Shown one piece after another: positions 6,370 to 55,946 of a DNA stretch of 55,946 nt. The translations under genes and the position numbers were made by a program. The stretch's first letter is position 1. Each line of letters opens with the position of its first letter. This DNA comes from a virus. Under the pieces are notes generated by a model. The model was not told where the DNA came from and searched no databases. It saw only the letters and a program-made list of their open reading frames with translations. The stretch lies in the IMG/VR virus record IMGVR_UViG_3300050504_000274. One strand, 5' to 3'.

Positions 6370-6392
6370 CGTTCAGGAAATCCGAGAAATGA

Positions 6393-6407: not shown

Positions 6408-6425
6408 CCAGAGGGGTAAGATACC

Positions 6426-6440
6426 CTGCCATCCTGGCAG
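6426..6440. promoter_or_regulatory. Palindromic operator-like site CTGCCATCCTGGCAG
   Basis: Perfect CTGCCA-N3-TGGCAG, 33 bp centre-to-centre from the first site. Confidence 0.5.
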
Positions 6441-6489
6441 CCCGCCAGAGAATTCTCGGGAAAACCGTTCGAGGGGATAGATCACTCCC

Positions 6490-8666: not shown

Positions 8667-8672
8667 AGTAGA

Positions 8673-8700
8673 GCGGGCCGGAGATCGCTCCCCGGCCCGC
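8673..8700. terminator. GC-rich stem-loop in a convergent intergenic region (putative bidirectional terminator)
   Basis: gcgggccgg (8673-8681) / ccggcccgc (8692-8700), 10-nt loop. A second small hairpin, acgccgcttcggcgt, lies at 8709-8723. No clear U-tract. Confidence 0.45.
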
Positions 8701-8816
8701 CTCGGTTCACGCCGCTTCGGCGTACTGGTAGTTGGCACTTGACTTGTGGCACCACCTGCCGAACAATCTCGTCTCTCGCGAGCAGTATACCTGCTCGACT
8801 CGAGAAGGTCAAGTTC

Positions 8817-9125: not shown

Positions 9126-9217
9126 GAAGTGCCTCCGAATGTGACCTTGAGAATTGTCCAGATGACCACGAAGCCGCCAGCGAGCAGCAGACCGAACGCC
9201 GCCCGCAGGAACTTCAT
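9050..9217 (-). CDS. Possible single-TM micropeptide (MKFLRAAFGLLLAGGFVVIWTILKV...)
   Basis: ATGA overlap with the stop of the upstream gene. The hydrophobic N-terminus looks real, but the C-terminal 28 aa overlap the next gene and look out of frame. The true end is uncertain. Confidence 0.3.
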   Translation of the reverse strand: MKFLRAAFGLLLAGGFVVIWTILKVTFGGTSCSTRGRTSFSRRAALSSVRRSFRR

Positions 9218-10293
9218 CGCTTGAGCGCCGGCCGCACCTTGTTGAGGTACAGCAGCGTGTCCGAGACGACGCCGTGCTTGGCGTCCATGAAGAGGAGCCG
9301 CTGGCACGGATCGCCGCAGGCCGCGAGCTGCTCCTTCGCGAAGTCGTTGTCCGACTCCGTGGTGCCGTTCGCGTAGAAGCGCCGGTAGCCGAGCGTGGCC
9401 ATCGCCGGGGTGTGGAAGTGGCCGAAGAGCAGGTGGTCCCACTTCTCCTCGATCGCGTCGATCCAGCCCCAGGCCTTCTTCGCCGTGCCGTACCACGGGA
9501 AGCCGGCGAAGCCCCCGCCGATCTGGTGGCCGTGGACGACCAGGTTGCCCCAGTCGAACACGCGGTCCACGACCCAGAACTCGTCGGTCATCCTCCACTG
9601 GAGCCTGCCGGCCAGCTCCGCGCGGGGGTTGTCCTTCGTGCCGAGCAGCATCGTGCGCAGCGTGATGTACGCCACCTGGTCCCAGTTCGTGCGCGGGTGC
9701 GAGCGGGTGCTCTTCGGGCCGTTGCGCCCGTGGTTCCCCGGCACGCTGAAGACGACCACCCGCTCGAAGTGCTCGAGCGCGAGCAGGAGCGCCTTGCCGA
9801 CGATGCGCGGGAAGTTCAGGCAGGCCTGGTCGATGACCGGGCTGTCGATCTCGTGCGCCTGGTGCGGGAAGATGTCCTCGCCCTCGATCACGTCGCCGCC
9901 GAGGTAGACGTGCAGCTCGTCGATCCTGGCCATGTTGCGCCGCAGGTCGGCGATGTAGATGGTCTTGTCCATCGCCTCGAGCACGCGGGCCTCGCAGACC
10001 GTCGTGTCGTAGGAGCGCGTCGTCTTGCCGAGCTGGAGGTCGGAGAGGTGCAGCACCGCGATCTCCTCGTAGCTCCGCTTGCCGCCGTGCCGCGGGCGCG
10101 GCGGGGCGACGATGCGCGGCGGGCTGTCCGCCAGGCAGGACTGCACGGCCTCGACGATCGCGGCCTCCTTCGTCTGCGACTGGCGCAGGCGCTTCTCGAG
10201 CGCGCGCACCTGCGACTTCAGCTCCGCCGCAGTGGCCGACTTGTCGGCCTCGTCGGCCAGGAACTTCGAGAGCGGGCTCTGCTTCTTCTTCAC
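9214..10293 (-). CDS. Calcineurin-like metallophosphoesterase (359 aa)
   Basis: Motifs LHLSDLQLG, GGDVIEG, PGNHG, HGH and GHFH in the canonical order. Start reassigned to GTG 10293 (AGGAGAG upstream, GTGA overlap with the upstream stop). The longer track ORF has an Arg/Pro-biased leader. Confidence 0.85.
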   Translation of the reverse strand: MKKKQSPLSKFLADEADKSATAAELKSQVRALEKRLRQSQTKEAAIVEAVQSCLADSPPRIVAPPRPRHGGKRSYEEIAVLHLSDLQLGKTTRSYDTTVCEARVLEAMDKTIYIADLRRNMARIDELHVYLGGDVIEGEDIFPHQAHEIDSPVIDQACLNFPRIVGKALLLALEHFERVVVFSVPGNHGRNGPKSTRSHPRTNWDQVAYITLRTMLLGTKDNPRAELAGRLQWRMTDEFWVVDRVFDWGNLVVHGHQIGGGFAGFPWYGTAKKAWGWIDAIEEKWDHLLFGHFHTPAMATLGYRRFYANGTTESDNDFAKEQLAACGDPCQRLLFMDAKHGVVSDTLLYLNKVRPALKR

Positions 10294-11166: not shown

Positions 11167-11379
11167 CTAGTCCTTGTAGCGCTCCCCCTTGGTGATCCGG
11201 TAGTCTCCGATCAGCCGAAAGATCGTGCTCTTGCTGATCCCCAGGAGCTTGGCCGCGGCCGTAGCGTCCCCGTCGGTGATCTGCAACGCCGTGATGATAC
11301 ACTGCCGGCGGGCCTCGGTCAAGGTGAGAACCGGAAGTCTCAGGACGACGTTCCGGAGCGGGTCCCTGGGCTCGCTCAT
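11167..11379 (-). CDS. Fis-type helix-turn-helix DNA-binding protein (70 aa)
   Basis: C-terminal ATAAAKLLGISKSTIFRLI resembles the Fis/NtrC-type HTH. ATGA overlap with the upstream gene. Confidence 0.7.
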   Translation of the reverse strand: MSEPRDPLRNVVLRLPVLTLTEARRQCIITALQITDGDATAAAKLLGISKSTIFRLIGDYRITKGERYKD

Positions 11380-11939
11380 CGCACCAGCTCCAGGACGGTC
11401 CTGCCGCCGCGGACGACTCGGACCATCGGGTACATCTCCCTGGCGTGCAGCCACAGCGCCGCGCCCTGCGCGAGCGACTGGGACTCGCGGCCCCCGCCCT
11501 GCTCGACCCACTCCGGCTCGCCGCCCTCGACGGGCACGAGCACCTCGACGTGCCACAGGTCGCTCTCTGGCGGCTGGTAGCTCGGGAGGTCGTCCAGCTC
11601 CGCGGGCTTCAGGCCGCGGGCGATCATCTCCTCGAAGTGCATCATCGCCTGCACGTTCCACATCGCCGCGGCGAGGTGGTCCTCGTCCCGCATCCCGGCG
11701 AGGTGCTTGTACAGGTGGCGCACCGCGCAGTCGAAGAACACGCTCAGCGGCATGCCCTTCTCCCAGTTGCGCGCGTCGTACTTGACCGCGCCCTTCTCGA
11801 GCAGGACCGCGAGGCGGCCCAGCGCGAGCGGCGAGATCAGGTCGTACCGGCCCTTGCCGGTGGCGGCGTCCCGCTTCGCGCCGGTGTCGAACGTCCGCCG
11901 GGTGCCGCTGTCCTTCAGCTCGTAGTCTCTCTGCTCCAT
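11376..11939 (-). CDS. dATP/dGTP pyrophosphohydrolase-like protein (DUF5664-type N-terminal domain) with a ~60-aa C-terminal extension
   Basis: FDTGAKRDAATGKGRYDLISPLALGRLAVLLEKGAVKYDARNWEKG...DEDHLAAAMWNV matches the pattern I know for this phage family. Confidence 0.8.
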   Translation of the reverse strand: MEQRDYELKDSGTRRTFDTGAKRDAATGKGRYDLISPLALGRLAVLLEKGAVKYDARNWEKGMPLSVFFDCAVRHLYKHLAGMRDEDHLAAAMWNVQAMMHFEEMIARGLKPAELDDLPSYQPPESDLWHVEVLVPVEGGEPEWVEQGGGRESQSLAQGAALWLHAREMYPMVRVVRGGRTVLELVR

Positions 11940-18060: not shown

Positions 18061-18372
18061 CTAGTACCTGCCGATGAACCTCGTGCCCGGCCCCTCCGGC
18101 GCGTCGACCTGGAGGAAGAGGTACCTGCCGTTCTGGCAGTCCCCTACGAACGCCAGCTCCTTGCCGTCCGGCTGATCCGGCAGAGCGTCGCCCTGGCTCA
18201 GCATGACGAAGGTCTCAGACTCCTGCGGCCGCGTGGGGTCGACCAGGGCCGACATGACGACCGTGTAGTCGTTCGGTCCGGCGCGCACCGAGAGCGGGCA
18301 CCAGCCGTCCGGCATCAGCATCGGCGTGACCGAGGACCAGCGCTGTAGGACATATTCTTGAACGCACCTCAT
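18061..18372 (-). CDS. Hypothetical protein (103 aa)
   Basis: MRCVQEYVLQRWSSVTPMLMPDGW... ATGA overlap with the SNF2 stop. This is the only non-biased part of track ORF 18061..19374. Confidence 0.7.
   Translation of the reverse strand: MRCVQEYVLQRWSSVTPMLMPDGWCPLSVRAGPNDYTVVMSALVDPTRPQESETFVMLSQGDALPDQPDGKELAFVGDCQNGRYLFLQVDAPEGPGTRFIGRY
18125..18139. promoter_or_regulatory. CTGCCGTTCTGGCAG palindrome inside the 3' end of a coding region, ~85 bp upstream of the 18.0-kb promoter
   Basis: Perfect CTGCC-N5-GGCAG, the same family as the sites at 6.4 kb and 34.8-35.2 kb. Confidence 0.35.
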
Positions 18373-20429
18373 CGCACCCTCTCCATCGGCCCGAACTTCT
18401 CCTCCAGCGCCGCGCGGGCCTGCGCGTCGAGCTGGCTCACGTCCACGAACCCCCGCTCGCGCAGGAAGTCGATCGGATACACCTTCGGCAGCGGGTCGTG
18501 CGAGCAGATCACGAGCTTCTGCCGCGCGCCCGTGGTCTGGTGGATGTACAGCGCGTCGACGATGCAGGCCGCCATGTTCAGGTGGTCGAACGTCAGCGTG
18601 TTCATCGTGTGCGCGACCAGCTCGTCGGCCGGCTGCCCGTTGCGGTGCGTGCGCCCGAGCACCTGCTCGATTAGGTCGGCCTTGCGCGGGAAGTCGATGA
18701 AGAGCTGGTTGTAGAATTCGTGCTGGAGGTTCTTGCCCGTGCCATGGCCGCCCATCGAGATCACGAGTAGGCGCCGCGCGCCCGGCTTGTGCTCGACCAG
18801 CTCGTTCGAGCCCTTCCGCACCGACTCCGACGGCGCCCACGTGGCGCGGACGCCCGCGGCCTCGAGCGCGTCGCAGAGCCACCGCCCCACCTCGTCGTGG
18901 TGGAACCAGATCAGGCCGCCCTCCGGCTCCTTCCGGTCCTGGAGTGCTCTGGCCCACTCGATCGCGTGGCGGACCTTGTAGTCGCAGACGCGCACCGGCT
19001 CGGAGAGGCGCTCCGGCATCCCCTCGAACTCGAGGTCCTTCGCCTCGCGCCACGCGCCGTACAGCTCCGCGCCGACGTCCCGGTCGCCGTGCTGCGCCAT
19101 GTTCGCGCCGATGAGCAGCGGCGTGTCGAGGCGCGGCCTGCCCTTGTACTCGATCCAGCGGCGCAGCTTCTTGCTGTACTCCTGGTGCGCCTCGTGGTGC
19201 AGCCTCGCGAGCGCGAGGTGCTCCCTCGCGCCCTCGCGCGTGAGGCCGCGGCGCAGGACCAGCTCGTCCTCCGTCGGCCAGCGGAGGTGGTAGTAAAAGC
19301 CGCTCGTCAGCTCGTAGAGGTAGCGCCACTTCTGGAAGCCCCACTCGATCTCGTCGCCGGAGGGCGTGCGCCACAGCTCCTCCACGTCGTCCATCAGGCG
19401 CTTCAGCCGCCTGTACTCGTCGGTGTCCTGCACCGCCGGCAGCGGCACGGGGAGGTTCTGGATCGTGAGCGACACCCCGATCTCGTTGTCCCCGGTCGCC
19501 ACCACCCCTGGCGAGCTGTTGAGCCGCAGGCGGTACGCCTTGCGGAACCCGGGCACGCCCTTAGGCAGGTCCTCGCCCGGGAAGCACCGGCGGCTCCAGT
19601 CGATCAGCGGGGCGATCGGCCCGGTCTGCGCGACACTGGGGTCCGCCGTCGCGTCGAGCACGTACGACCAGTTGCTCGCGAGGGCCTGGTCCAGCGGCAG
19701 CGGGCTGCGCTCCCGCAGCGCGTAGGTGATGAGGTGGTGGTAGTCGCCGATCGACTTCGACGTGATCGTGCCGGAGAGCGCCACCACGCGCGGCTGCCTG
19801 GCCCTCAGGTAGCGCAGGATCCGCGTCGTGCGCGCGGCCTTCTGGTTCTTGACCGCGTGCGCCTCGTCGAAGATGAGGAGGTCGGGCTCGATCCCGGTCA
19901 GCACCGCCTCGGCGTCCTTCGTCGAGAGCTGCGAGTACGGTATCACGTAGCAGCCGCGCTTCCTCGAGGCGGCCGCGCTGGCGCGGGACGAGGCGTCCCG
20001 GCCGCCCATGAGCACGAACGGCACGCGCAGGCCGACGCGGCGCCGCGCCCACGGGATGTCTCGCTGCGTGAGCTGCGAGTAGACTTGCGAGGGCACGAAC
20101 AGGATCGAGCGCTCCGACTCGCGGCGCTCGAAGGCCCGGTTCGCGATCATCAGCGTGATGAGCGTCTTGCCCCAGCCGACGCCGATCGGGAAGAACCCGC
20201 CGCCGTAGATGTCCCACGCGAGCACGCCGCCGACCTGCGTGTTGAACAGGCGGAAGCCCTCGTCGAAGAACTTGGCGTCGACCTCCTGCCGGCAGAACTC
20301 CTCGACCTCCTCCGGCGTCGGGAGCAGGACGACCGGCAGCGAGACTATGCGGTGGATCTCCAGGGAGTCCGCCGTGTCTCGCCGCCGGTTCTGCCTGGCG
20401 CGAGCGAACGGGTCGCTCGTCGCGCTCAC
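18369..20429 (-). CDS. SNF2/RAD54-family helicase
   Basis: GVGWGKTLI (motif I), LLIFDEAHAVKN (DEAH box) and QVLGRTHRNGQ (motif VI). GTG start with GTGA overlap. Confidence 0.9.
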   Translation of the reverse strand: MSATSDPFARARQNRRRDTADSLEIHRIVSLPVVLLPTPEEVEEFCRQEVDAKFFDEGFRLFNTQVGGVLAWDIYGGGFFPIGVGWGKTLITLMIANRAFERRESERSILFVPSQVYSQLTQRDIPWARRRVGLRVPFVLMGGRDASSRASAAASRKRGCYVIPYSQLSTKDAEAVLTGIEPDLLIFDEAHAVKNQKAARTTRILRYLRARQPRVVALSGTITSKSIGDYHHLITYALRERSPLPLDQALASNWSYVLDATADPSVAQTGPIAPLIDWSRRCFPGEDLPKGVPGFRKAYRLRLNSSPGVVATGDNEIGVSLTIQNLPVPLPAVQDTDEYRRLKRLMDDVEELWRTPSGDEIEWGFQKWRYLYELTSGFYYHLRWPTEDELVLRRGLTREGAREHLALARLHHEAHQEYSKKLRRWIEYKGRPRLDTPLLIGANMAQHGDRDVGAELYGAWREAKDLEFEGMPERLSEPVRVCDYKVRHAIEWARALQDRKEPEGGLIWFHHDEVGRWLCDALEAAGVRATWAPSESVRKGSNELVEHKPGARRLLVISMGGHGTGKNLQHEFYNQLFIDFPRKADLIEQVLGRTHRNGQPADELVAHTMNTLTFDHLNMAACIVDALYIHQTTGARQKLVICSHDPLPKVYPIDFLRERGFVDVSQLDAQARAALEEKFGPMERVR

Positions 20430-20623
20430 TGCGGGACTCGCCCCCGCGGCCGCAGCTTTCGGATCCCCGCGGCGCGCAGGATCCTCGTCAGGGTCGTGAG
20501 GGACATCCGCCGCGGCAGCCCCTTCGGCGGGCTCTTCCGGATCTCCCGGAGCGTCTCGCCTGCCCTGTACCGCCTCGCGATGCTGCGCTCCTGGCGCAGC
20601 GTCGTCTCGATCATCGCCGTCAT
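20426..20623 (-). CDS. Small helix-turn-helix DNA-binding protein (65 aa)
   Basis: AGGAGG 6 nt upstream of ATG 20623. IARRYRAGETLREI...LTTLTRILRAAG resembles a resolvase/sigma-region-4-type HTH. Confidence 0.65.
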   Translation of the reverse strand: MTAMIETTLRQERSIARRYRAGETLREIRKSPPKGLPRRMSLTTLTRILRAAGIRKLRPRGRVPQ

Positions 20624-25383: not shown

Positions 25384-25956
25384 TCAGAAGCCCTCGAGCC
25401 CGAGCTGGCTCGCGCGCTTCTTGAAGGCGAAGCGGGCGGTGCGAGGGTCGTGCGCCCAGACCTTCGCGATCGCGGGCGCGTCGAGGGCGACCCGGTGGTC
25501 GACCCAGCCCACGCCCTCCGGCAGGAGGTAGTGCGCCTCCAGGTGGAGCGCGCGGGTGTCGTAGACCTTCACGCGCGGCCAGATCCACGAGTCCTCCGGC
25601 GGGAGCCCGAGGTCCTCGCGCACCGCGGCCTGGATCCTCGCCTCCCAGGCCTCGTGCTCCGGAAGATCGATCTTGAACGGGCTCGGGAAGTCGCCGCAGT
25701 ACGCCTCGTGGGCGTCGTGCAGGAGCGCGCACTGCTGCACCACCAGCGGCTCGCCGGCCGCCTCGGCCAGCACCGAGACCAGCACCGAGTGCTCGGCCAC
25801 GGAGTAGAACTCGCGGACGTGCCCGAGGTAGCGGCAGATCATCGACAGCGCGTGCGTGACGTCCTCGCGCTCGAAGTTGCAGTGCGAGTCGAGCGAGAAG
25901 AACTTCCGGCCGCTGACCGTCGTGATGTAGCCGTGCTTCTTCGCGGGGTGCTCCAT
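25384..25956 (-). CDS. HD-domain phosphohydrolase (5'-deoxynucleotidase/dNTPase-like)
   Basis: SVAEHSVLV (His) and ALLHDAHEAYCGDFPSP (HD...D). Start set to ATG 25956 (MEHPAKK), which shares one base with the upstream stop. Confidence 0.8.
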   Translation of the reverse strand: MEHPAKKHGYITTVSGRKFFSLDSHCNFEREDVTHALSMICRYLGHVREFYSVAEHSVLVSVLAEAAGEPLVVQQCALLHDAHEAYCGDFPSPFKIDLPEHEAWEARIQAAVREDLGLPPEDSWIWPRVKVYDTRALHLEAHYLLPEGVGWVDHRVALDAPAIAKVWAHDPRTARFAFKKRASQLGLEGF

Positions 25957-29400: not shown

Positions 29401-29703
29401 CTAGTTCGAGGTCACCCTGTCGACGCAGGCGACCGTGCCGTCCGGCCTCACCCTGTAGACCAGCAGCCCGCCCCTAGGGGCTGCGGGTCGCGGCCGGAGG
29501 TACACCACCAGGGAGACGTTGCCGTCCCTGTCCGCGACGCGGACCACCCGGTCCGTAGGGAACGCCAGCGGCACCTCGGCCTCCGTGCGCGGCGGGCGCC
29601 CGAGCCCCCTCGGCCCGGCGCACCCCAGGCAGCACGCCGCGATCAGGGCCATCTCCAGGAACATTATCCCCACGTACACGCTCAGTCGCTTGCTGGTCGT
29701 CAC
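29401..29703 (-). CDS. Predicted lipoprotein (100 aa)
   Basis: VTTSKRLSVYVGIMFLEMALIAACCLGCAGP is a signal peptide plus the lipobox LGC. GTG start with GTGA overlap on the GGDEF gene stop. Confidence 0.7.
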   Translation of the reverse strand: MTTSKRLSVYVGIMFLEMALIAACCLGCAGPRGLGRPPRTEAEVPLAFPTDRVVRVADRDGNVSLVVYLRPRPAAPRGGLLVYRVRPDGTVACVDRVTSN

Positions 29704-30275
29704 AGGATCCTCCTCTGCGCTATCTCACGCAGGCGCAGCCACGCCGCCGAGAAGGTCGGCAGCGTCCTCGCCCGCTTCTCCTCCTTGTCCAGGTACATCG
29801 CCGCGTCCGCGGCCTCCACGTCCGCGCCGAGGCCGGCGCTCGCCGACACCCGGCCGTCGCGCGAGCGCCAGCGGCGCACCAGGTCGCGCACGCGGCGCGC
29901 CCCGGCCCGGCTGTCGATGCGCACGACGAACTCGTCCCCGCCCTCGCGGGCGAGCGTCACGTCCGAGCCCCGAGTCTGCTCGGAGAGGAAGTGCGCGAAC
30001 TCCCGCAGCACCTCGTCCCCGTAGGCGTGCCCGAGCGGGTGCGCGTCCTGCGCCGCCTTGAACCCGTCCAGGTCGACGAAGACGAACCAGCTCTGGCCGT
30101 CGCGCCGCGTCCGGCGGTCTAGTCCGCGCCGGTTGTAGAGTCCCGTGAGAGAGTCCACCTCCGCGTCCCGCGCCCGCGCCTCGGCCTCGCGCTCCAGGTC
30201 GGGGAGCCGCGCCAGCCGCTCGCGCAGCGTCGCGTACTTCGTCTCGGTCAGGTCGGACCAGGCGGGAGAGTCCAA
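29700..30275 (-). CDS. Stand-alone GGDEF-domain protein (putative diguanylate cyclase), 191 aa
   Basis: DSLTGLYNRRG, FVDLDGFK, GHAYGDEVLREFA, REGGDEFVV (checked against the DNA at 29921-29960) and SASAG...AADAAMYLDK. A ~40-aa coiled-coil N-terminus and no sensor domain. Confidence 0.9.
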   Translation of the reverse strand: MDSPAWSDLTETKYATLRERLARLPDLEREAEARARDAEVDSLTGLYNRRGLDRRTRRDGQSWFVFVDLDGFKAAQDAHPLGHAYGDEVLREFAHFLSEQTRGSDVTLAREGGDEFVVRIDSRAGARRVRDLVRRWRSRDGRVSASAGLGADVEAADAAMYLDKEEKRARTLPTFSAAWLRLREIAQRRIL

Positions 30276-34051: not shown

Positions 34052-34171
34052 CTAGCTCGGGACCACCTCCGCGAGCCTCAAGACCGCGAAGACCACCACC
34101 GCGACGATCGGCAGGGCGCCGAGGAGCTTCAGGCCGGCGGGGGTCACGTTGGCTTGGATCATGTGCTTCAT
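34052..34171 (-). CDS. 39-aa single-TM micropeptide, first ORF of the leftward early operon
   Basis: My translation is MKHMIQANVTPAGLKLLGALPIVAVVVFAVLRLAEVVPS. RBS AAGGAAGGAAG 9 nt upstream. About 45 nt downstream of the predicted early promoter. Confidence 0.5.
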   Translation of the reverse strand: MKHMIQANVTPAGLKLLGALPIVAVVVFAVLRLAEVVPS

Positions 34172-34223
34172 GGCTTCTGGCTTCCTTCCTTTGGTGTCTC
34201 GTGGCTTCCGACCACGGTAGCCG

Positions 34224-34252
34224 AGTATATCGGCCGACCGAACCTTTGTCCA
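34224..34252 (-). promoter_or_regulatory. Leftward early promoter TGGACA-N17-TATACT
   Basis: -35 at 34247-34252 and -10 at 34224-34229 (minus sense), at the left edge of the noncoding hub. Confidence 0.55.
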
Positions 34253-34342
34253 GCGGAAAAAGCCGGGAATCGCCTAATTGATCTCCTAGCAATAGGTTAG
34301 AGTCTCGGAATCGGGACGTTGTTACCGATAGTCGGACTGCCC

Positions 34343-34408
34343 GGCCCGAGGTGCGGGCGCACCTAAGTAGAGCTAGGACAGGAGCTTGCGCCGGTAGGCC
34401 CGAGGTGC
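34343..34408. repeat. 12-bp exact direct repeat ggcccgaggtgc (34343-34354, 34397-34408) overlapping a 7+2+7 palindrome aggtgcgggcgcacct (34349-34364)
   Basis: Read directly in the noncoding hub. Confidence 0.8.
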
Positions 34409-34447
34409 CCAGCCTTTCCTATGTCCCGCTATACACGTACCCTTATA

Positions 34448-34614
34448 CTACTTTCGGGATATCTCGAAAACAGTATAAGGGGTCGCGCACACGTTAGAGG
34501 GGGACCGTTTTGCAGGAGTCTCGATCCTAGGCCTCCGACTACTATCCGTTGTGGTCCTACTTTCGGGACCTCCGAGCCTAATGTTACGCATAGCGCAGAA
34601 TTCGGATATCTCGA
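34448..34614. repeat. Dispersed direct repeats in the noncoding hub
   Basis: ctactttcggga occurs at 34448 and 34557. ggatatctcga occurs at 34457 and 34604, inside an imperfect palindrome around GATATC. Both are exact matches read by eye. Further partial matches: aggggtc, gggac(c)(g)ttttgca. Confidence 0.75.
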
Positions 34615-34804
34615 TCTACGTACAGGGGTCCGTTCTACGGGACTTTTGCACCGTTCTTACCTAATTGGTCGTCCTAAGTCCATGCAGGAGGCCTACTTAG
34701 GCGTGTGTTGCATTAGTGGAATAATGTAAGTTTTCAGTCAAAACCCACCTAAATCGAATTGATTCTAGATCAAACCCCTAGATCGAGGGCTTGTCGCACC
34801 CTAA

Positions 34805-34842
34805 ATGCCATTATGGCAGGGCCTCGGCTGCCATAATGGCAG
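34805..34842. promoter_or_regulatory. Pair of operator-like palindromes ATGCCATTATGGCAG and CTGCCATAATGGCAG; together they form a 13-bp perfect inverted repeat
   Basis: gccattatggcag (34807-34819) and ctgccataatggc (28-40) are reverse complements separated by 8 nt. Each half is itself a CTGCC-N5-GGCAG-type palindrome. Centres are 23 bp apart. Confidence 0.55.
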
Positions 34843-34990
34843 GCCATTTGTTACGATGTCGTAACACATTGATGTGAGATCAATTCGAAGGCGAGGCCTC
34901 GGGCAGGCTCCTGGGAAATTGATCGCGCGCCAAACCCCTCCACGTGCGCGATTCCGGGCAGGGAGACTGCCCCTCCTCGCGTCGCGGGAC

Positions 34991-35078
34991 CCAGAATTTC
35001 GGGCTGGGAAATTCGGCCGGGAAAAATCTGGGCAGAAAATCCGGGCCTAGGAATTCGGCCGGAGGAATTCAGGCTAGG
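34991..35078. repeat. Six tandem degenerate ~14-bp units (GRAAWWTYC-GGSC), iteron/phased A-tract-like
   Basis: GAAWT cores start at 34994, 35008, 35021, 35035, 35051 and 35065, giving spacings of 14, 13, 14, 16 and 14. Confidence 0.7.
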
Positions 35079-35139
35079 AGAGCGGCGGCCGCACGCTCCG
35101 GCACACGTGCACGTTCCCGCACGGAATCCCGGAATCCGC

Positions 35140-35168
35140 TTGACCCTGCCGTTTTGGCAGCGTACGCT
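35140..35168 (+). promoter_or_regulatory. Rightward promoter TTGACC-N17-TACGCT with CTGCCGTTTTGGCAG filling the spacer
   Basis: -35 at 35140-35145, palindrome at 35146-35160, -10 at 35163-35168. The first possible start codon (TTG 35174) is 6 nt after the -10. Confidence 0.5.
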
Positions 35169-35173
35169 GGGGG

Positions 35174-36259
35174 TTGCGGCGCGCCCGAGCGCAGCACCCA
35201 ACGCGAGCACCCCCGGCCGTGGCCCAGAGGCACCAGGTAGACGTCGCGACCCCGGCGCTGGACCGCTTCCTGTCCGAGCCCGCGGCCCGCCAGCTCCTCG
35301 GCGACGAGCTGGGCCGGGTGCTGTCCGAGGCGTTCCTGCCGCCCGGCTACGAGGCCCAGTACCCGCGCCAGGAGGACCTCCGCTGGCGCGTCCTGGTCTG
35401 CTGGCGCCTCGCTCGCGGGATCGCGCTGGTGCTCGGCCTGTGCGCCGAGGACGAGCCGCTCGAGCGCGCCGCGGACGCCGAGGACTACGCCGAGAGCCCG
35501 TGGACCTTCCCGACCGCGCCGCGGCTCTCCCCGAGCCAGCAGCAGCTCGTCCGGCTCGGCGAGGCGACCGACATGCACCGGCTCGCCGCCGGGGGCGTGA
35601 CGCTGCTGCCGCCGGCCGACCCGGCCCTCGCCCGGGCCTGGTGCCCGGTCGCCGCGGTGCTCGCCGAGGAGCTGGGCGTCGCCGCCTCGGAGGGCGGGGC
35701 GGCCGGGCTGCGCGGCCTGCTCGACCCGAGGACCTGCGGCCACGCGGGCGTGACCCCGAAGATGGTGGTGGGCCTGGAGGAGCTGCTCGTCGACGAGGCG
35801 GCCCGGGCGATCCTGGAGTGCGGCGAGCGCGCGACGGTGGAGCACCTGCGCGGCCGCTACGGCCTGGCCCGCCGGGAGGCCGCGGCGCTGGTGCGCCTGG
35901 CGCGCGCCGACGCGATGCGCGGGGGCTCCTCCTCGGTTGAGGAGGACCGCGCCCTGATGGTGCTGATGCTGAAGGACCTCGCGGCCCGCACCAAGGAGGA
36001 GATGAACACCGACAAGGAGCTGCGCGTGCTGAAGGAGCTGGCCCGCGTGCAGGGCCTCACGCGCTCGGAGCCCGAGGACCTGGGGCGGCTCTTCGCCGGC
36101 GTGATCGCGGGGGTGGCCGAGCGGCAGGACCGCCGGCTGCTAGAGAGCCAGAGGAGGATCGTCGACGCGGACGCGGTGGACGTGACCCCCGAGCCCGCGG
36201 TAGACTCGGGGGACGAGGACCCGGCGGCCCTCGCGGAGTTCGACAGGGAGGAGACGTGA
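35174..36259 (+). CDS. Hypothetical protein, possible small terminase subunit (361 aa; start uncertain)
   Basis: First gene of the rightward block. The C-terminal KELRVLKELARVQGLTRSEPEDL resembles the ...ALELLGKHLGLF tail of some TerS families. The TTG start would be leaderless; GTG 35219 is an alternative. Confidence 0.6.
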   Translation: MRRARAQHPTRAPPAVAQRHQVDVATPALDRFLSEPAARQLLGDELGRVLSEAFLPPGYEAQYPRQEDLRWRVLVCWRLARGIALVLGLCAEDEPLERAADAEDYAESPWTFPTAPRLSPSQQQLVRLGEATDMHRLAAGGVTLLPPADPALARAWCPVAAVLAEELGVAASEGGAAGLRGLLDPRTCGHAGVTPKMVVGLEELLVDEAARAILECGERATVEHLRGRYGLARREAAALVRLARADAMRGGSSSVEEDRALMVLMLKDLAARTKEEMNTDKELRVLKELARVQGLTRSEPEDLGRLFAGVIAGVAERQDRRLLESQRRIVDADAVDVTPEPAVDSGDEDPAALAEFDREET

Positions 36260-36798
36260 TGCTGCGATGGGCGAGATCAGGCGGAAGACGTGAGAGCGCT
36301 GCGACCCGGAGGCGGCCCGTGAGGCGCGCCGCGCTGAGCGCGATCGGCTTCGCGCTCGACAGAGCGCTATGCGCGCTGCTCTTCTGGGGCGTCGTCCTGG
36401 CGAACCTGGAGGGCTGCGCGGCGGTGGGCCGCGGCCTGAAGTTCGTCGGTGAGAGGCTCATCCAGATCGGGGGAGGCGCCGTCGTCGGCTTCCTCGCCTG
36501 GGTCCTCTACCCGGTCGGCTGGGCCGGCGTCGCGCTCGCGACGTTCGTGGCGAGCGTGTTCTCCGCGCTCGCCGCCCCGCCGACCGTCGTGGACAAGAAC
36601 GGCCACGGAGGCCCAGACCGCCTGACGTGGGTGCTCGTCGGCGCGGGCGGCGCGCTGCTGCTCCGCGCGTGGGCGCACTACCCGGAGGTGTTCCGGCGCG
36701 CGTGGGCGCTCGTCCGCGGCGGCGCGAGGGCGTTCCTCGGCGGGGTCGAGCGGAGGCTGCCAGAGCTGCCGCCGGAGTCCAAGGAGGTCGGCAGGTGA
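36256..36798 (+). CDS. Multi-pass membrane protein (180 aa)
   Basis: At least four hydrophobic stretches (ALCALLFWGVVLANL, GGAVVGFLAWVLYPVGWAGVALATFVASVFSALA, LTWVLVGAGGALLL). The start overlaps the upstream stop. Confidence 0.7.
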   Translation: MMLRWARSGGRRESAATRRRPVRRAALSAIGFALDRALCALLFWGVVLANLEGCAAVGRGLKFVGERLIQIGGGAVVGFLAWVLYPVGWAGVALATFVASVFSALAAPPTVVDKNGHGGPDRLTWVLVGAGGALLLRAWAHYPEVFRRAWALVRGGARAFLGGVERRLPELPPESKEVGR

Positions 36799-36926
36799 GG
36801 CCCGACCAGCGAGGCTACTACGCGGCCGACGAGGACCCGCTCGACGAGCCCGAGGACCAGTCGGACGAGATGGACGACCCCCTGAGCTTCGTCTTCCCCG
36901 AGGACGAGCACGCGAACTACCAGTAG
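36795..36926 (+). CDS. 43-aa highly acidic peptide
   Basis: GTGA overlap. VRPDQRGYYAADEDPLDEPEDQSDEMDDPLSFVFPEDEHANYQ has 16 Asp/Glu in 43 aa. Confidence 0.5.
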   Translation: MRPDQRGYYAADEDPLDEPEDQSDEMDDPLSFVFPEDEHANYQ

Positions 36927-36960
36927 TCCCCCTTTTCGGCGGCTCCGCCGCCTCACCTCC

Positions 36961-37254
36961 ATGATCTCCTTCGACGACCTGACCGACCTCCCGCCCTGGG
37001 TCAAGACCGGCGCGACCCTCCTGCTCGGCGCAGGGGCCTCGAAGGTCCTCGCCGTGTGGCTCGAGAGCCGCCGGCTCGCGAAGAGGGAGTACCGCGACAC
37101 GCTGCTCCAGCGGATCCGCGAGCTGGAGACCAAGATCGACCGCATGTACCACGAGCTGGGGCAGCGCGACGTGCTGATCGAGCAGCTCAGGAACGACCTG
37201 GAGCAGTACAAGGAGCCCCGTGCTCAGTCTCGCCGCCCTCCGAGGAAGGCTTGA
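36961..37254 (+). CDS. N-terminal TM plus coiled-coil protein (97 aa)
   Basis: TGATLLLGAGASKVLAVWL, followed by the heptad-like REYRDTLLQRIRELETKIDRMYHELGQRDVLIEQLRNDLEQ. Confidence 0.7.
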   Translation: MISFDDLTDLPPWVKTGATLLLGAGASKVLAVWLESRRLAKREYRDTLLQRIRELETKIDRMYHELGQRDVLIEQLRNDLEQYKEPRAQSRRPPRKA

Positions 37255-37762
37255 GGTCTTGCGGGACCCCCTGAGCCTCTGCGACTCGCTCGAGCTGAGG
37301 CCCACGCCCCGGCAGCGCGAGGTCCTCGGGGTCCTCGCCACCAACCCGAGCTTCTACCAGGTCGTCGGGGACGCCCGGAACGAGATGTCCAGGGCCGCCG
37401 CGATGTACGCGCTGTGGCGCGTCCTCGCGAACCAGTCGTCCAGCGGGCTCGTCCTGGCCTCGACGCAGGACGAGGGGGCCAAGATCATGGCCTTCCTACA
37501 GCAGGTGACGACCAAGATCAACCCGCAGCTCGCCTCCGTGACCGGGTTCCCCTACTGGAACGTGCTCCGGGTCGGCGGGCAGCGCTCCTGGGAGATCCAC
37601 CTGCTCGAGAATCGCGCCCCGATCGTCGCCCAGAGGGCGCCGGGAGCGCTCCTGAGCGTCGTCGTGGGCGACAGGAGCAGCGATCCGGCGTTCCGGGAGG
37701 CCGTGACGGCCCTCGAGCAGCACTCGACGCACCCCAAGCACACCAGGATCGTCGTCTGGTGA
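37220..37762 (+). CDS. Hypothetical protein immediately upstream of terL; possibly a degenerate terminase-ATPase-like fold (start uncertain, alternative TTG 37259)
   Basis: LELRPTPRQREVLGVL...GDARNEMSRAAAMYALWRVL...LLSVVVGDRSSD loosely mirrors the TerL N-terminal layout but lacks a GK[ST] Walker A. Confidence 0.6.
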   Translation: MLSLAALRGRLEVLRDPLSLCDSLELRPTPRQREVLGVLATNPSFYQVVGDARNEMSRAAAMYALWRVLANQSSSGLVLASTQDEGAKIMAFLQQVTTKINPQLASVTGFPYWNVLRVGGQRSWEIHLLENRAPIVAQRAPGALLSVVVGDRSSDPAFREAVTALEQHSTHPKHTRIVVW

Positions 37763-37777
37763 CGATTTTCGGCTGAA

Positions 37778-39256
37778 ATGTCCACGTTCGCGAGGAAATT
37801 CACGCCCCTGTACGAGCGCTGGCGCTCCAGCATCCACGACTTCTTCGACACGGGCCTCAACTTCGGCAAGGAGGCGCCCGGGAGCGGCCCGACGTGGCAG
37901 CAGAGGCAGCTCCTAGACGTGATCCAGCTCGAGAGCGAGCTTCCGGTCGAGAAGAGGCTCAAGCGGGTGGCCGTCCGGAGCGGCCAGGGGCCGGGGAAGA
38001 CGTCCATGAGCGGCGGAGTCGCCCTCTGGCGCTGCCTCCGCTACCCGGACGCCCTCTGCGTGGTCACCGCGCCGAACATGCGGCAGTGCAAGCAGTTCAT
38101 CGACGAGATCGACCGCATCCTGAAGGGCGCGCACCCCTTCCTGCGCGGGTTCGTCGAGTGCTACGGCACGAAGGTCGTCGTCAACGGCTCGCGGACGTGG
38201 CAGATCCGCTCCGCGACGGCCTCGCGGCCGCAGAACCTCCAGGGGATCCACGAGAAGCGCCTGACGTTCATCGCCGACGAGGCCTCTGGCGTGGCCCGGT
38301 CGATCATGGAGACGATCCAGGGCACGCTGTCGAACCCGGACGCGCTCTTCCTGGCGATCGGGAACCCCAACACGACCGACTGCAAGTTCCACGAGTGCTT
38401 CACCACGCAGGCCGACCTGTGGCACCGGCTCGCGTGGAACGCCGAGGACACGGCGCGCGACTACCCGCACATCGTCTCGCCGAGCCGCAACCGCGCGCTC
38501 GAGCTGGAGTACGGCCGCGACAGCGACGTGTACCGCGTACGGGTCCTCGGGGAGTTCCCGCGCAGCGACCCGAACTCGATCATGGCGCTCGAGGACCTGA
38601 TCGCCTGTACCAAGACGACCATGTACGGGTGCGCGACGATCACGGACATCCTCCCGGTGAACAAGGCCATCGGCATCGACTACGCGCGCTACGGCGGCGA
38701 CGAGTCGGTCGTGGTCCGGCGCAGCGGGCTGGCCGTCGTGGACTTCAAGGTCTTCGTGAAGCGCGACCCGCGCGAGGTCACCGACTACGCCTTCCGCCAG
38801 CAGTACGACGCCGGCTGGAAGAACGACGACTGCTGGTACGTCCCCGACGCGGGCGGCATGGGCCAGGGCATCGTGCACTCGTTCTGGGAGGGCGGCAAGC
38901 AGGTGCACGAGTTCCACACGCAGGCCGTCGCGAGCGACAGCTCGATGTTCGCCGACGCCTACAGCGAGGCCTGGTGGAACCTGCGCAACCTCGTGCAGGA
39001 GCGCATCGTCCACCTCCCTAACGACCCGCGCCTGCTGAAGCAGCTCTCGACGCGGCAATACTACACCGACCGCAAGGGGCGCCTGAAGGTGGAGTCGAAG
39101 GACGAGTGGCGCGAGCGCACCGAGATCGACGAGTCGCCCGACCGCGCCGACGCGGTGGTGATGGCTTTCTATAGCCGGATGGGCCGCGACGGTAAGGTCG
39201 TCCAGATGCAGCAGAAGGCGTACAAGCTCGGGTCCCGGGCGAGGAGGAGCCGGTGA
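37778..39256 (+). CDS. terL: Terminase large subunit
   Basis: Walker A SGQGPGKTS, Walker B LTFIADEASG, and nuclease-domain acidic motifs IGIDYARYGGDES and SPDRADAVVMAF. Confidence 0.9.
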   Translation: MSTFARKFTPLYERWRSSIHDFFDTGLNFGKEAPGSGPTWQQRQLLDVIQLESELPVEKRLKRVAVRSGQGPGKTSMSGGVALWRCLRYPDALCVVTAPNMRQCKQFIDEIDRILKGAHPFLRGFVECYGTKVVVNGSRTWQIRSATASRPQNLQGIHEKRLTFIADEASGVARSIMETIQGTLSNPDALFLAIGNPNTTDCKFHECFTTQADLWHRLAWNAEDTARDYPHIVSPSRNRALELEYGRDSDVYRVRVLGEFPRSDPNSIMALEDLIACTKTTMYGCATITDILPVNKAIGIDYARYGGDESVVVRRSGLAVVDFKVFVKRDPREVTDYAFRQQYDAGWKNDDCWYVPDAGGMGQGIVHSFWEGGKQVHEFHTQAVASDSSMFADAYSEAWWNLRNLVQERIVHLPNDPRLLKQLSTRQYYTDRKGRLKVESKDEWRERTEIDESPDRADAVVMAFYSRMGRDGKVVQMQQKAYKLGSRARRSR

Positions 39257-39444
39257 AGTGCCCGTGCGGAGGGACGATCGGCGTGACGCACACGTACGCC
39301 GTCGACACGAAGAAGTTCCAGCGAGCCTACTGCCTGAAGTGCAAGCTCGTCTACTGTCTCGAGACCCTCATGCACCAGGTCGGTGCGCGGGGCTCGGGCG
39401 CGAAGGCCCGCGCGCAGCGGGCCGAGAAGGAGAAGGTCAGATGA
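39253..39444 (+). CDS. Zinc-ribbon protein (63 aa)
   Basis: GTGA overlap with the terL stop. KCPCGG...CLKCK, then a basic tail. Confidence 0.65.
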   Translation: MKCPCGGTIGVTHTYAVDTKKFQRAYCLKCKLVYCLETLMHQVGARGSGAKARAQRAEKEKVR

Positions 39445-39950
39445 AGAAGCTGATGATGTCCCTGGCGGCGCTGGCGCTGGTCGCGGCGGGCTGCCACACG
39501 ATGGACCGCTACCGCCCGACGCCCAGGCCCACCCCGGCCGAGAAGGCTATCGACCCGCGTCCGGACCTGCCCGGCAGGCCGGTCGAGGTGGGGAGCCCGC
39601 TGTTCGAGCTGGAGCGCGCCCTGCGCGCTCACTTCCCCACCGCTCACCCCTGGGTCCTCCGCTCGAGCCCGCTGAAGGACCCGTACCTCGGGCTGACGCA
39701 CCCGGACCCGAAGGCCGCGGCCGCCGGCGAGGACCCCTGGTCGCCGACGTCCTCGATCCTCACCGAGGTCCGCGACGACGTGGACCCCTGGATCCAGCGC
39801 GACATCCTGATCCACGAGTACGCGCACGTGCTAGCGTGGGACGCGCAGGAGAGCCCGCACGGCCCGGTCTGGGCCAGCCAGTTCGGCATCCTGTACAAGT
39901 ACACCAGGGGGGAGCCGATGATCCGGCTCTTCTTCCGCGGGGGACCGTGA
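39441..39950 (+). CDS. Lipoprotein with a SprT-like HExxH zinc-metallopeptidase motif (169 aa)
   Basis: MKKLMMSLAALALVAAGC (lipobox). ILIHEYAHVLAWDAQESPHGPVWASQFG fits the HExxH...HGxxW SprT-like pattern. ATGA overlap with the upstream stop. Confidence 0.75.
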   Translation: MKKLMMSLAALALVAAGCHTMDRYRPTPRPTPAEKAIDPRPDLPGRPVEVGSPLFELERALRAHFPTAHPWVLRSSPLKDPYLGLTHPDPKAAAAGEDPWSPTSSILTEVRDDVDPWIQRDILIHEYAHVLAWDAQESPHGPVWASQFGILYKYTRGEPMIRLFFRGGP

Positions 39951-54615: not shown

Positions 54616-55946
54616 TTATCTGGGGCTCAGCTCGGCCTGGAAACGGAAGCGAGCGTGGGTCCCGTTCGACGCACCCTCCCGCGGAGGGTGCTCGTACTGG
54701 GTGTCGACGAGCTTGACGGTGACCTGGCGGTCCTCGTTCTCGTCGCGCGGGATGCAGATGGGGTCCTCGAGGAGGGCGCGAACGAACGGCTCGCAGATGA
54801 CCTCCTCGTTGAACTTCAGGATCAGGAGCCACTGCCACGACGTCGGGTCGAGCACGTACTTGCGCCCGAGGCGGTGGAGCGTCTGGTAGGCGGCGGTCAG
54901 CTCGTTGACCTCGACCGAGGCGGGCTGGACCTGGAGTCCCTGGACTAGCTCGCAGGCGTCGGAGTCGTAGGTGGCCTCGATGAACGTGCCGAGCTGCGCG
55001 GCGAGGCACAGCGCGTCGTGGACCTTCTTCTTCAGGGTCACGGCGATGAACCCTCCTCTGATGAAGGGATACCCGAACGCCTCCGCGCTCGCGATCCCGT
55101 GCGGCTGGACGACTTGCAGGCCGAGGGTGGAGAGCAGCGGCGTGCCGAACGCCTCCGCGCTCGCGATCCCCTGGCCGTCGAGGTCGACGACCTGAGCCCC
55201 GGAGACGACCACTACCGGCGTCCCGAAGGCCTCGAGGCTGGCGATGCCCTGGCCGTCGAGGTCGATCACGACCGCGCCGACGAGCAGGTCCGGAGATCCG
55301 AAGGCCTCCTCCGACGCGATGCCCTGGCCGTCGAGGTCGACGATGGTGGCGAACGTGACCGTGGGAGATCCGAACGCCTCGGCCGACGGGATGCCCTGGG
55401 CGTCGAGGTCGATCGCGACCGCTCCGGGCTGGACCTCGGGCGCGCCGAAGGCCTCGGCCGAGGCGATCCCCTGGCCGTCGAGGTCGATCGTCACCGCGCC
55501 GACCAGCAGGTCCGGCGAGCCGAAGGCCTCCGCGCTCGGGATGCCCTGGGCGTCGAGGTCGATCGCGATGGTCGCCGCGATCGTCGGAGAGCCGAACGCC
55601 TCGGACGATGGGATTCCCTGCCCGCTCAGGTCGACGGCGATCGACGCGGCGATCGTGGCGCTGCCGAACGCCTCCGCTGATGCGATGCCGCTCGGACTCA
55701 CGTTGATGTTCGTCGCGATCGTGGCGCTGCCGAACGCCTCCGCCGACGCGATGCCGCTCGGGCTGACGGCGATCGTGGCGGCGATCGCCGGCGTTCCGAA
55801 GGCCTCGGTGCTCGTGATGCCGCTCGGACTCACGTTGATGTTCGTCGCGATCGTGGCGCTGCCGAACGCCTCCGCCGACGCGATGCCGCTCGGGCTGACG
55901 GCGATCGTGGCGGCGATCGCCGGCGTTCCGAAGGCCTCGGTGCTCG
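54616..55946 (-). CDS. Repeat-containing fibre-like virion protein, C-terminal part (joins 1..1352 across the junction; ~851 aa in the circular model)
   Basis: The track ORF 54616..55833 stays open to the window end. It comprises 13 GI(A/P)SxEAFG(S/T)P units and then a 144-aa non-repetitive C-terminal domain (FIAVTLKKKVHDALCLAAQ...RFRFQAELSPR). Confidence 0.8.
   Translation of the reverse strand, partial: STEAFGTPAIAATIAVSPSGIASAEAFGSATIATNINVSPSGITSTEAFGTPAIAATIAVSPSGIASAEAFGSATIATNINVSPSGIASAEAFGSATIAASIAVDLSGQGIPSSEAFGSPTIAATIAIDLDAQGIPSAEAFGSPDLLVGAVTIDLDGQGIASAEAFGAPEVQPGAVAIDLDAQGIPSAEAFGSPTVTFATIVDLDGQGIASEEAFGSPDLLVGAVVIDLDGQGIASLEAFGTPVVVVSGAQVVDLDGQGIASAEAFGTPLLSTLGLQVVQPHGIASAEAFGYPFIRGGFIAVTLKKKVHDALCLAAQLGTFIEATYDSDACELVQGLQVQPASVEVNELTAAYQTLHRLGRKYVLDPTSWQWLLILKFNEEVICEPFVRALLEDPICIPRDENEDRQVTVKLVDTQYEHPPREGASNGTHARFRFQAELSPR
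55051..55946 (-). repeat. In-frame tandem coding repeats of 66-78 bp; the 5'-most copies form exact 132-bp double units
   Basis: Repeats continue to ~146 at the left end. 55688-55814 is identical to 55820-55946. Confidence 0.9.
55820..55946. repeat. Terminal direct repeat, right copy
   Basis: Identical to 1-127. Confidence 0.95.

Follow-up and report, generated by a model that had tools for sequence, protein, structure and literature searches.

A palindrome on the late promoters of a metagenomic phage shares its sequence with intergenic arrays beside Gemmatimonadota heat-shock genes

The virus record IMGVR_UViG_3300050504_000274, analysed here over its full 55,946 nucleotides (the window), carries a short palindrome, CTGCCA-N3-TGGCAG, at the promoters of its packaging and structural genes. 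Judged from sequence comparison, our analysis supports the view that the palindrome is real and conserved on those promoters and serves there as a binding site for a regulatory protein. The copies are non-random, they are conserved at the orthologous promoters of related phages, and they have the same sequence as arrays in bacterial chromosomes, where those of Gemmatimonadota mostly adjoin heat-shock genes. An earlier note on this DNA, made from its letters, had proposed the palindrome family as binding sites of a repressor or a MerR-like activator, and that reading is partly supported. Two points are new: the putative operator has the sequence of an apparent sigma-54 heat-shock enhancer of the host, and among the phage proteins is a bare DNA-binding domain of the matching class.

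Palindrome copies in the window

Five exact copies of CTGCC-N5-GGCAG start at 6393, 6426, 18125, 34828 and 35146, and a sixth at 34805 (ATGCC...GGCAG) has one mismatch, as the earlier note had listed. Its claim of rarity holds: 100 dinucleotide-preserving shuffles give an expectation of 0.08 exact copies with a maximum of 1, against a first rough estimate of ~0.2-0.3. When the refined 12-position consensus CTGCCA-N3-TGGCAG is used, one mismatch or less is reached at these six places only in the whole window. The intergenic bias is also borne out, five of the six sites being intergenic (P about 9e-6) despite an intergenic share of 7.0% by gene calling with a codon model. The spacings inside clusters are 17-23, 30-33 or 53 bp. 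The putative sites and the promoter of the packaging operon are as follows.

34805 to 34842, no strand: distal tandem pair, ATGCCATTATGGCAG / CTGCCATAATGGCAG, with centres 23 bp apart, lying 318 bp upstream of the proximal operator
35140 to 35168, plus strand: sigma-70-type promoter TTGACC-17-TACGCT, driving the operon 35219-39950 and conserved in relatives
35146 to 35160, no strand: proximal operator, CTGCCGTTTTGGCAG, in the 17-nt spacer of the packaging-operon promoter
6393 to 6440, no strand: portal operator pair, 33 bp apart, flanking TAAGAT at 6417-6422
18125 to 18139, no strand: intragenic copy, in the open reading frame (ORF) 18061-18321 (minus strand, conserved, 86 amino acids)

The 35146 copy lies inside a promoter, which the earlier note had described as having its 17-nt spacer exactly filled by the palindrome. 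The promoter stands, and it is the 15-nt copy plus CG that fills the spacer between TTGACC (35140-35145) and TACGCT (35163-35168). A consensus promoter scan missed this promoter, since TACGCT agrees with TATAAT at 3 of 6 positions, and we take it as real because the hexamers and their spacing are conserved in relatives (contigs and loci are given L numbers). The site is within the spacer in L001 (TTGCC(C)-site, gcg, TACTCT), L025 (TTGC(CT)-site, cccg, TACTCT) and L027 (TTGACA, t, site, gc, TAGAAT). Across these three and the window the distance from site to -10 is 2-4 nt and the spacers are 17-18 nt. L023 (TTGACA-17-TAGACT) and L037 (TTGACA-17-TAGGGT) have no site; in both of them, and in L051 and L014, the -35 and -10 are kept while the palindrome is gone as a clean insertion or deletion. 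The promoter would hence work without the site. By these alignments it is a promoter of the sigma-70 type, functional in design without the palindrome, which appears to be an overlay whose register slides.

A further feature was seen in the packaging-promoter spacer of some far relatives. In L037/L038 (~3760-3790) and L032 (~5010-5040) it reads CTGGCACGGAGTGTGCT or CTGGCACGCAGCGTGCT, which scores 11 of 12 to the sigma-54 promoter consensus and is 14/16 identical to the host hsp20-type promoter of L166. This match overlaps a perfect TTGACA-17-(TGc)TAGGGT, and may reflect a relic, chance or a dual promoter.

The portal pair sits in a 120-bp divergent region between the head-protease gene (minus strand) and the portal gene (plus strand). 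The 6393 copy covers the -35 position of the TAAGAT portal promoter and the 6426 copy spans about -4 to +11. A site of this region is also in the spacer of a putative leftward head/tail promoter, which has a -10-like hexamer only. All five intergenic sites except the distal pair overlap a polymerase footprint. The sites appear to mark the late units, i.e. the packaging operon, the portal gene and probably the head-tail block.

The distal copies at 34805 and 34828 also form the perfect inverted repeat reported before, which is 14 nt long rather than 13 (34806-34819 / 34828-34841, 100% complementary, 8 nt between). Ten of its 14 positions are automatic, each site being itself palindromic. The 18125 copy is, as described earlier, close to the 18.0-kb promoter, ~90 bp upstream of a minus-strand TTGACT-16-TATACT (18042-18015). 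However it is intragenic and is missing at the orthologous codons of the closest relative, and it is not conserved in L005, whose protein is 47% identical. This copy is probably fortuitous and not functional; it may be due to chance, a single stray copy having about the likelihood that the expectation of 0.08 gives.

Conservation of the sites in related phages

In relatives the flanking DNA has diverged but the same promoters still carry the sites, which upholds the expected conservation at orthologous positions. The TerL proteins of these relatives are 41-82% identical to that of the window and the portal proteins 50-76%. The closest relative is a 54.7-kb IMG/VR contig whose TerL is 82% identical. 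It has a hub tandem pair, a copy in a TTGCCC-17-TACTCT spacer and a pair flanking TAGAAT upstream of the portal gene, in intergenic DNA that otherwise hardly aligns. Of the 19 distinct relatives obtained through portal homology (50-76% identity), 14 have a pair upstream of the portal gene, as do L027 and L227/L228. Sites overlap promoters in L001, L002, L025 and L027 as well, and in L010 the portal promoter is the sole site location.

The positions of the sites relative to the promoters vary (-22, -29, +8 to +43, -76/-94). Distal copies lie 288-357 bp upstream in four relatives, including L001 (a pair), L025 and L026, and no helical phase is conserved. In L050, L080 and L106 the packaging operon opens with the same gene, which has 2-3 copies upstream; in the latter two (TerL ~41% identical) they are at about -76 to -128 of a TTGACA-17-TAGCCT-like promoter. 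In one portal clade, the far clade, the pair is downstream of a TTGCSG-17-TACCGT promoter, at about +8 to +43. L014 retains the portal promoter and leader of this clade with the pair cleanly missing.

The long portal leader of the far clade (L008-L017, L010, L014) has features of its own. Two hairpins are conserved in it, CACAGG..CCTGTG and GGGATAG..CTATCCC, which appear by eye, as opposed to a formal count, to carry compensatory and G-U changes. A third portal-leader hairpin, CCCTGACGAGGG, holds the ribosome-binding site (window 6470-6489 region). These hairpins suggest translational control of the portal gene. A perfect AAATC..GATTT palindrome was considered as a general element and rejected, as it is restricted to the far clade.

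The same palindrome in bacterial chromosomes

We searched one genome for each of 185,579 species with the exact pattern CTGCC-N4-TGGCAG-N(1-10)-CTGCC-N4-TGGCAG and obtained at least 120 loci. Among the matches listed, 34 of 120 are from Gemmatimonadota (26 genomes, mostly Longimicrobiales chromosomes), a share that is not a calibrated enrichment. The Gemmatimonadota arrays are intergenic, with 2-6 copies and the consensus CTGCCAAAATGGCAG. In 24 of these 34 loci a gene for DnaK (3), ClpB (10) or Hsp20 (11) is found by tblastn at most 425 bp from the site, compared with a heat-shock neighbour in 2 of the 86 other loci listed. The identities of the HSP70, ClpB and HSP20 neighbours were confirmed by Pfam. 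Sigma-54-type (GG-N10-GC) promoters lie between array and gene, e.g. cGGCACgccccTTGCC before dnaK and TGGCACggccgaTGCA before hsp20. A match to the sigma-54 consensus of at least 10/12 is found in 17 of the 34 loci, 23-66 nt from the site and usually 23-46 from its start. We read the host motif as the apparent enhancer of a sigma-54 heat-shock activator of the host. The CTG...CAG ends had also made us consider a LexA/SOS box, and this was dropped in view of the heat-shock neighbours with GG-N10-GC promoters.

Host and phage sites agree beyond the stems. Counted position by position, the 121 host sites and the 57 phage sites show the same preferences, with A>>G at position 6 and T>>C at position 10, and both sets have an A/T-rich centre and a G after the site. 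The stem sequence is invariant in all 178 sites with zero compensatory double changes. None of the bacterial loci is a prophage of the phage family: when every protein of the window was compared with them by tblastn, two GGDEF hits were the only matches.

The palindrome pair adjoins a gene for an activator with GAFTGA and a C-terminal HTH_8 (a helix-turn-helix domain) in six betaproteobacterial loci. Such pairs, lying beside HTH_8 activator genes and sigma-54 promoters, are independent evidence for HTH_8 domains as the readers of this class of palindrome. In these loci (L120, L182, L187, L190, L200 and L216) a GG-N10-GC promoter is beside the pair in five of six. The cytochrome bd genes (cydAB) adjoin the pair in three of the six, and in the loci that were read through the pair is followed by a sigma-54 promoter of cydAB. 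This looks like an undescribed activator-enhancer pair.

A second host element, GGCCCGRWTCTTYC, was observed at a constant distance, 40-43 nt, from the array edge at heat-shock genes in 10 of the 34 Gemmatimonadota loci listed (L112, L145, L179, L181, L193, L199, L212, L213, L221 and L222). Its reverse complement is ATGRAAGATCCGGGCCA, with a conserved ATG. The element resembles the repeats GAAAATCCGGGCC of the phage hub, the non-coding stretch (34172-35218) upstream of the packaging operon.

Sigma-54-linked chaperone genes are reported for Planctomycetota and Bacteroidota in a published comparative study (PMC12316311), in which term searches gave no match to 'Gemmatimonad' and no enhancer sequence. 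Our literature searches found nothing on a Gemmatimonadota sigma-54 heat-shock system or on phages using such sites. From the shared motifs, Gemmatimonadota is the likely host phylum.

Candidate binders of the sites

The phage encodes a small protein of the class that would be expected to read such a site.

11167 to 11379, minus strand: p70, a stand-alone NtrC/Fis-type helix-turn-helix protein (HTH_8) of 70 amino acids, candidate binder of the palindrome or of the GGAATCC element described below

The earlier note had put this protein forward, a sensible choice, as it matches Pfam HTH_8 with 24.6 bits (cut-off 22) and its AlphaFold model (pLDDT 87) has a three-helix core. The best fold matches are 2m8g, 1ojl, 4l5e (root-mean-square deviation 0.9 A over 46 columns), 3e7l/4fth and Fis, i.e. 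Fis and the DNA-binding domains of sigma-54 activators (ZraR, NtrC1, and NtrC4 with DNA). Their probability is 1.00, with weak E-values of 0.07-0.3 for so small a protein. According to the model, p70 has the fold of a sigma-54-activator DNA-binding domain. It aligns weakly with helices B-D of Fis, and it aligns with the C-terminal HTH_8 of an activator that adjoins the same palindrome.

p70 is a hallmark of the phage family. We found 82 homologues, most of 62-76 amino acids and nearly all with a precomputed PF02954 match, and those looked up are on phage contigs of 50-58 kb. A HMMER search of representatives with the p70 profile gave multi-repeat and short HTH_8 proteins. In every locus fetched the p70 gene follows the MazZ-like gene, whose stop it overlaps, downstream of PolA. 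In the window it is 4.7 kb from the nearest site, and the genes flanking the hub and the portal region encode no DNA-binding domain.

The distribution of p70 does not follow that of the palindrome. p70 is found in every relative examined for it, while the sites are patchy, so p70 does not depend on the CTGCC sites. L014 and L051 are one phage (308-nt overlap, 100% identity) with p70 and no site in 42.6 of 55.9 kb, a coverage that includes both late promoters. L234, L230 and L231 likewise have p70 and no sites. In addition, the p70 recognition helix differs between phage clades (KSTIFRLI vs ASTMYRKV), and the motif does not vary between them. The co-occurrence of p70 and sites was tested and does not discriminate.

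Other candidates were sought by Pfam and PHROG scans of ~60 phage proteins. No integrase and no CI-like protein is present among them, in agreement with the earlier remark that a CI/Cro gene is not obvious, and no match to Sigma54_activat or to the MerR family was found. The second candidate of the earlier note, a 65-amino-acid protein at 20426-20623, is not supported: its HTH_33 match is weak and below the cut-off (E 0.006). Many small early phage proteins have no detectable domain. The idea of a phage-encoded binder fits the domain class of p70, but the motif is shared with the Gemmatimonadota arrays and the binder may be a host activator. We lean towards a host activator, with p70 a close second.

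A second element at the late promoters

At both late promoters nearly all relatives have another 15-bp element, placed 2-4 nt upstream of the -35, even relatives that lack CTGCC sites. It has the following counterparts in the window, where the hub also contains a set of direct repeats.

35123 to 35137, no strand: GGAATCC-C-GGAATCC, 2 nt upstream of the packaging -35
6376 to 6390, no strand: GGAAATCCGAGAAAT, the counterpart at the portal promoter
34994 to 35075, plus strand: about six direct repeats GAAWWYCGGSC with a 14-nt period, resembling the host element GGCCCGRWTCTTYC

The far clade has the form GAAATCC-G-GGATTTC, and another form is AAATCCGAGATTT; examples are at about 3738 in L037 and upstream of the portal gene in L008-L017. 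Bacteriophage Mu Mor and C proteins bind dyads next to the -35 of middle and late promoters. Judging from its placement, the second element may be a late-activator site, possibly the true p70 target. It fits p70 at least as well as the CTGCC sites do, because the element is universal.

A model for the late promoters and its alternatives

We propose that (c)CTGCCA-N3-TGGCAG(g) would be a DNA operator for an NtrC/Fis-type HTH_8 dimer, so that the phage late promoters would bear the sequence used as an enhancer beside sigma-54 dnaK, clpB and hsp20 promoters in Gemmatimonadota. A dimer bound over the spacer, the -35 or the start would exclude RNA polymerase and hold back the virion genes. The distal pair ~300 bp upstream would probably add cooperative binding through looping. 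The preferred occupant would be the host heat-shock activator, repressing through its own DNA-binding domain, and such occupancy would couple late expression to the protein-folding stress of the host. p70 would compete for the same sites, or bind GGAATCC as a late activator. We infer from the comparisons above that a protein binds, the sign of its effect, its identity and the host phylum. The general layer, an HTH_8-type operator gating the late promoters, we consider likely; a host activator as the binder is a tentative assignment, and the explanation as a whole has in our opinion an even chance. Of the two mechanisms offered earlier, a repressor acting by occlusion is the one that suits the data better, because the site positions differ and the offset to -10 slides by 2-4 nt, which does not suit a phase-critical activator. 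A MerR mechanism is disfavoured because the spacers are 17-18 nt, not 19-20, and the register slides.

Several observations weigh against this model. The L080 and L106 sites are upstream of their promoter, a geometry more typical of activation. A late-gene repressor requires a release mechanism, and none is evident here. The binding itself is deduced from sequence. Beyond the uncalibrated Gemmatimonadota share, the arrays of other phyla are heterogeneous: those of Acidovorax and Actinomycetota are coding Ala/Lys repeats, those of Bdellovibrionales and Verrucomicrobia are plain tandem repeats, and that of a Pirellulaceae metagenome-assembled genome is a 41-nt repeat element. No host activator gene was found in the 34 Gemmatimonadota 8-kb loci with the GAFTGA motif or the p70 hidden Markov model. 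The host phylum is read from the shared motifs alone; homologue searches with GGDEF, TerL and p70 gave no host taxonomy, and two distant TerL relatives are in metagenome-assembled genomes labelled Planctomycetota.

An alternative hypothesis, possible but less probable in our view, is an autonomous phage circuit, in essence the idea of the earlier note, in which early or middle p70 would bind the palindromes and keep the late promoters repressed up to its titration or inactivation. The identity with the host arrays would then come from p70 having descended from a host activator domain and also occupying host enhancers. p70 has the right domain class and fold, it is a family hallmark in the replication module, and it aligns with the HTH_8 of an activator beside the same palindrome. 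We nevertheless prefer a host protein, because clades that differ in their p70 recognition helices have an identical motif and the sites are patchy where p70 is universal, as the phages with p70 and no sites illustrate; the universal GGAATCC/GAAATCC element fits the p70 distribution better. It is somewhat less probable still that the mimicry would be two-sided, with p70 as the bare domain of the host activator occupying the dnaK/clpB/hsp20 enhancers and re-timing or blunting the heat shock, while competition between host activator and p70 at the phage late promoters would time the virion genes.

It is improbable, we think, that the sites serve activation, with p70 as a small Fis-like dimer or a host protein stimulating late transcription by contacting RNA polymerase from upstream or by twisting the DNA from the spacer, as do MerR, Mu C and P1 Lpa. 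P1 late promoters carry a palindrome centred near -22. Exactly the late units are marked, the L080 and L106 copies lie upstream of a sigma-70-type promoter, and the leftward head promoter of the window has a poor -35, all of which would suit an activator. Yet a 17-18 nt spacer with a good -35 (TTGACC, TTGACA) makes such help unneeded, and relatives run the same promoter without the site. The far-clade pair is downstream of the start, the offset to -10 is variable, and no MerR-type protein was found among those scanned. A different phage binder, e.g. the 65-amino-acid protein or a small ribbon-helix-helix protein, with the host match being coincidental, is a slightly poorer candidate again. The domain-less early proteins and the sub-threshold HTH_33 match leave room for it, but host and phage sites agree in their position counts at all 12 specified positions and at the flanking G, and the habit of tandem arrays and a second motif are common to host and phage, making a coincidence unlikely.

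We consider it very improbable that the palindromes are not operators but RNA hairpins or terminators in leaders, or pac/cos repeats of the terminase. The RNA fold of the distal hub pair is -25.3 kcal/mol (z = -3.2), the 34828 copy was flagged terminator-like with a T-rich tail after it in the window and in L001, and many relatives have clusters upstream of the packaging operon. Against this, the stem shows no compensatory double changes in the 178 sites and has no Rfam match, single sites fold no better than shuffles, and the T-tail is confined to the second hub copy and absent in the far clade. One copy is in a promoter spacer, which is not transcribed, and the host copies are upstream of promoters. 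A pac site is also unlikely to recur at a portal promoter 28 kb away, or to be found there only as in L010.

Comparison with known systems

The phage sites resemble NtrC-type sigma-54 enhancers in form and differ from them in placement. The NtrC sites at glnAp2 are TGCACC-N5-GGTGCA. Enhancers of this type are 5-N5-5 or 6-N3-6 dyads of 15-17 bp, in arrays and read by a C-terminal HTH_8 dimer, and CTGCCA-N3-TGGCAG has this dyad form, with half-sites about one helical turn apart. The palindromes of Gemmatimonadota and Betaproteobacteria (cydAB) also hold the enhancer position relative to GG-N10-GC promoters. In contrast, the phage sites overlap sigma-70-type promoters, no GG-N10-GC promoter in enhancer geometry is beside the sites of the window or its relatives, and no AAA+ activator was found among the phage proteins scanned.

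Phages that use host regulator boxes are a second comparison. LexA boxes are present in Bacillus phage GIL01 and in CTXphi, CtrA boxes or homologues in alphaproteobacterial phages, and VqmA-Phi of vibriophage VP882 is a phage copy of a host regulator. The likeness is that phage promoters use the recognition sequence of a host regulator and that some phage homologues read both host and phage sites. The present case would differ in involving a sigma-54 heat-shock enhancer code, a bare domain of 70 amino acids and late promoters.

The sites are similar to the lambda CI/Cro operators in being palindromes over the -35, spacer or start, in tandem about two helical turns apart, with a distal set that could loop. 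They differ in that no divergent repressor gene or immunity region is adjacent, late genes are controlled, and the early promoters (TTGACY-16/17-TAYACT) carry no sites. The Fis core site is typically 15 bp, and p70 is small with a Fis-like three-helix DNA-binding core, but it is without the N-terminal arm and helix A of Fis. The GGAATCC element is placed beside the -35 as the Mor/C dyads of Mu are, and p70 differs in having no Pfam Mor match.

Genome layout and other features

The first 127 nt of the window equal the last 127 nt (1-127 / 55820-55946), which indicates a closed circular assembly of a phage genome of ~55.8 kb. Its G+C content is ~70%. The hub has a low G+C of 53-59% and coincides with the minimum of the cumulative GC skew; a megablast of it against GenBank phages gave no match. 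The gene layout below is from codon-model gene calling and the domain scans described above.

34171 down to 8817, minus strand: early/replication block
35219 to 39950, plus strand: packaging operon, whose first gene encodes a protein of 346 amino acids, with TerL at 37778-39256 (phrog_2)
6490 to 8666, plus strand: portal unit, with the portal gene at 6490-8115
6369 through the junction to 40027, minus strand: head-tail block, including the head-protease gene at 4957-6369
34224 to 34252, minus strand: leftward early promoter TGGACA-17-TATACT, kept in L001 as TTGCCA-17-TATACT

The early block encodes GGDEF, UDG, HD, DUF5906 primase-like, PD-(D/E)XK nuclease, helicase, ligase, PolA-like and MazZ-like dGTP_diPhyd_N proteins besides p70. 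Its operon starts with a conserved ORF of 39 amino acids (34052-34171), and the leftward early promoter is free of CTGCC sites. Between this promoter and the distal pair, ~500 bp of low-G+C (53-59%) non-coding DNA (34300-34800) contain several inverted repeats, e.g. 34440-34481, and may represent an origin or a region of non-coding RNA. Searches of the window for tRNAs and for Rfam families found none.

The family is known from metagenomes. TerL is at most 33% identical to that of any phage deposited in GenBank, yet it has 828 relatives at E <= 1e-40, with phages of 50-60 kb, and a TerL search of the species genomes found no prophages of the family.

A minus-strand promoter-like TTGACC-17-TATACT (~8812-8784) is strong and aimed into the convergent gap 8667-8816, with a GC-rich hairpin ahead of it at ~8675-8698. 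A transcript of ~100 nt from it could run antisense to the end of the portal unit. The junction of the assembly falls within a minus-strand gene that contains tandem repeats of 132 bp (at 55688 and 55820), and the plus-strand ORFs at 19-1059 are probably shadows of this large repeat-containing tail or fibre gene.

The MazZ-like dATP/dGTP diphosphohydrolase domain and an HD-domain protein (11376-11939, 25384-25956, 9214-10293) suggest manipulation of the nucleotide pool or modification of DNA bases. The window scans gave no adenylosuccinate-synthetase-like (PurZ) match, and relatives additionally carry a nucleoside deoxyribosyltransferase or a metallophosphatase.

The stand-alone GGDEF protein (29700-30275, minus strand, 190 amino acids) is another hallmark of the phage family. 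It has 172 homologues at E <= 1e-10, the closest being 146-228 amino acids long and several on contigs of 50-59 kb. It recurs in many related phage-sized contigs, its cellular relatives are distant only, and it is a possible source of a phage-made cyclic nucleotide signal.

Implications for the phage family and its host

The palindrome offers a regulatory code for a large family of 50-60-kb phages that is seen in metagenomes only. To our knowledge there are almost no cultured phage-host pairs for Gemmatimonadota, and here this phylum is suggested as the host from shared cis-regulatory sequence alone. As a by-product, the analysis gives a likely enhancer sequence for the sigma-54-dependent heat-shock regulon of Gemmatimonadota. 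Our literature searches found no phage case using the code of sigma-54 enhancer-binding proteins on late promoters. Should the host activator, or a phage copy of its DNA-binding domain, prove to be the binder, this would be the first case found of late genes plugged into that code. If the two-sided mimicry is true, p70 and the sites would form a phage-encoded dominant-negative 'enhancer decoy and mimic' system against the sigma-54 regulon.

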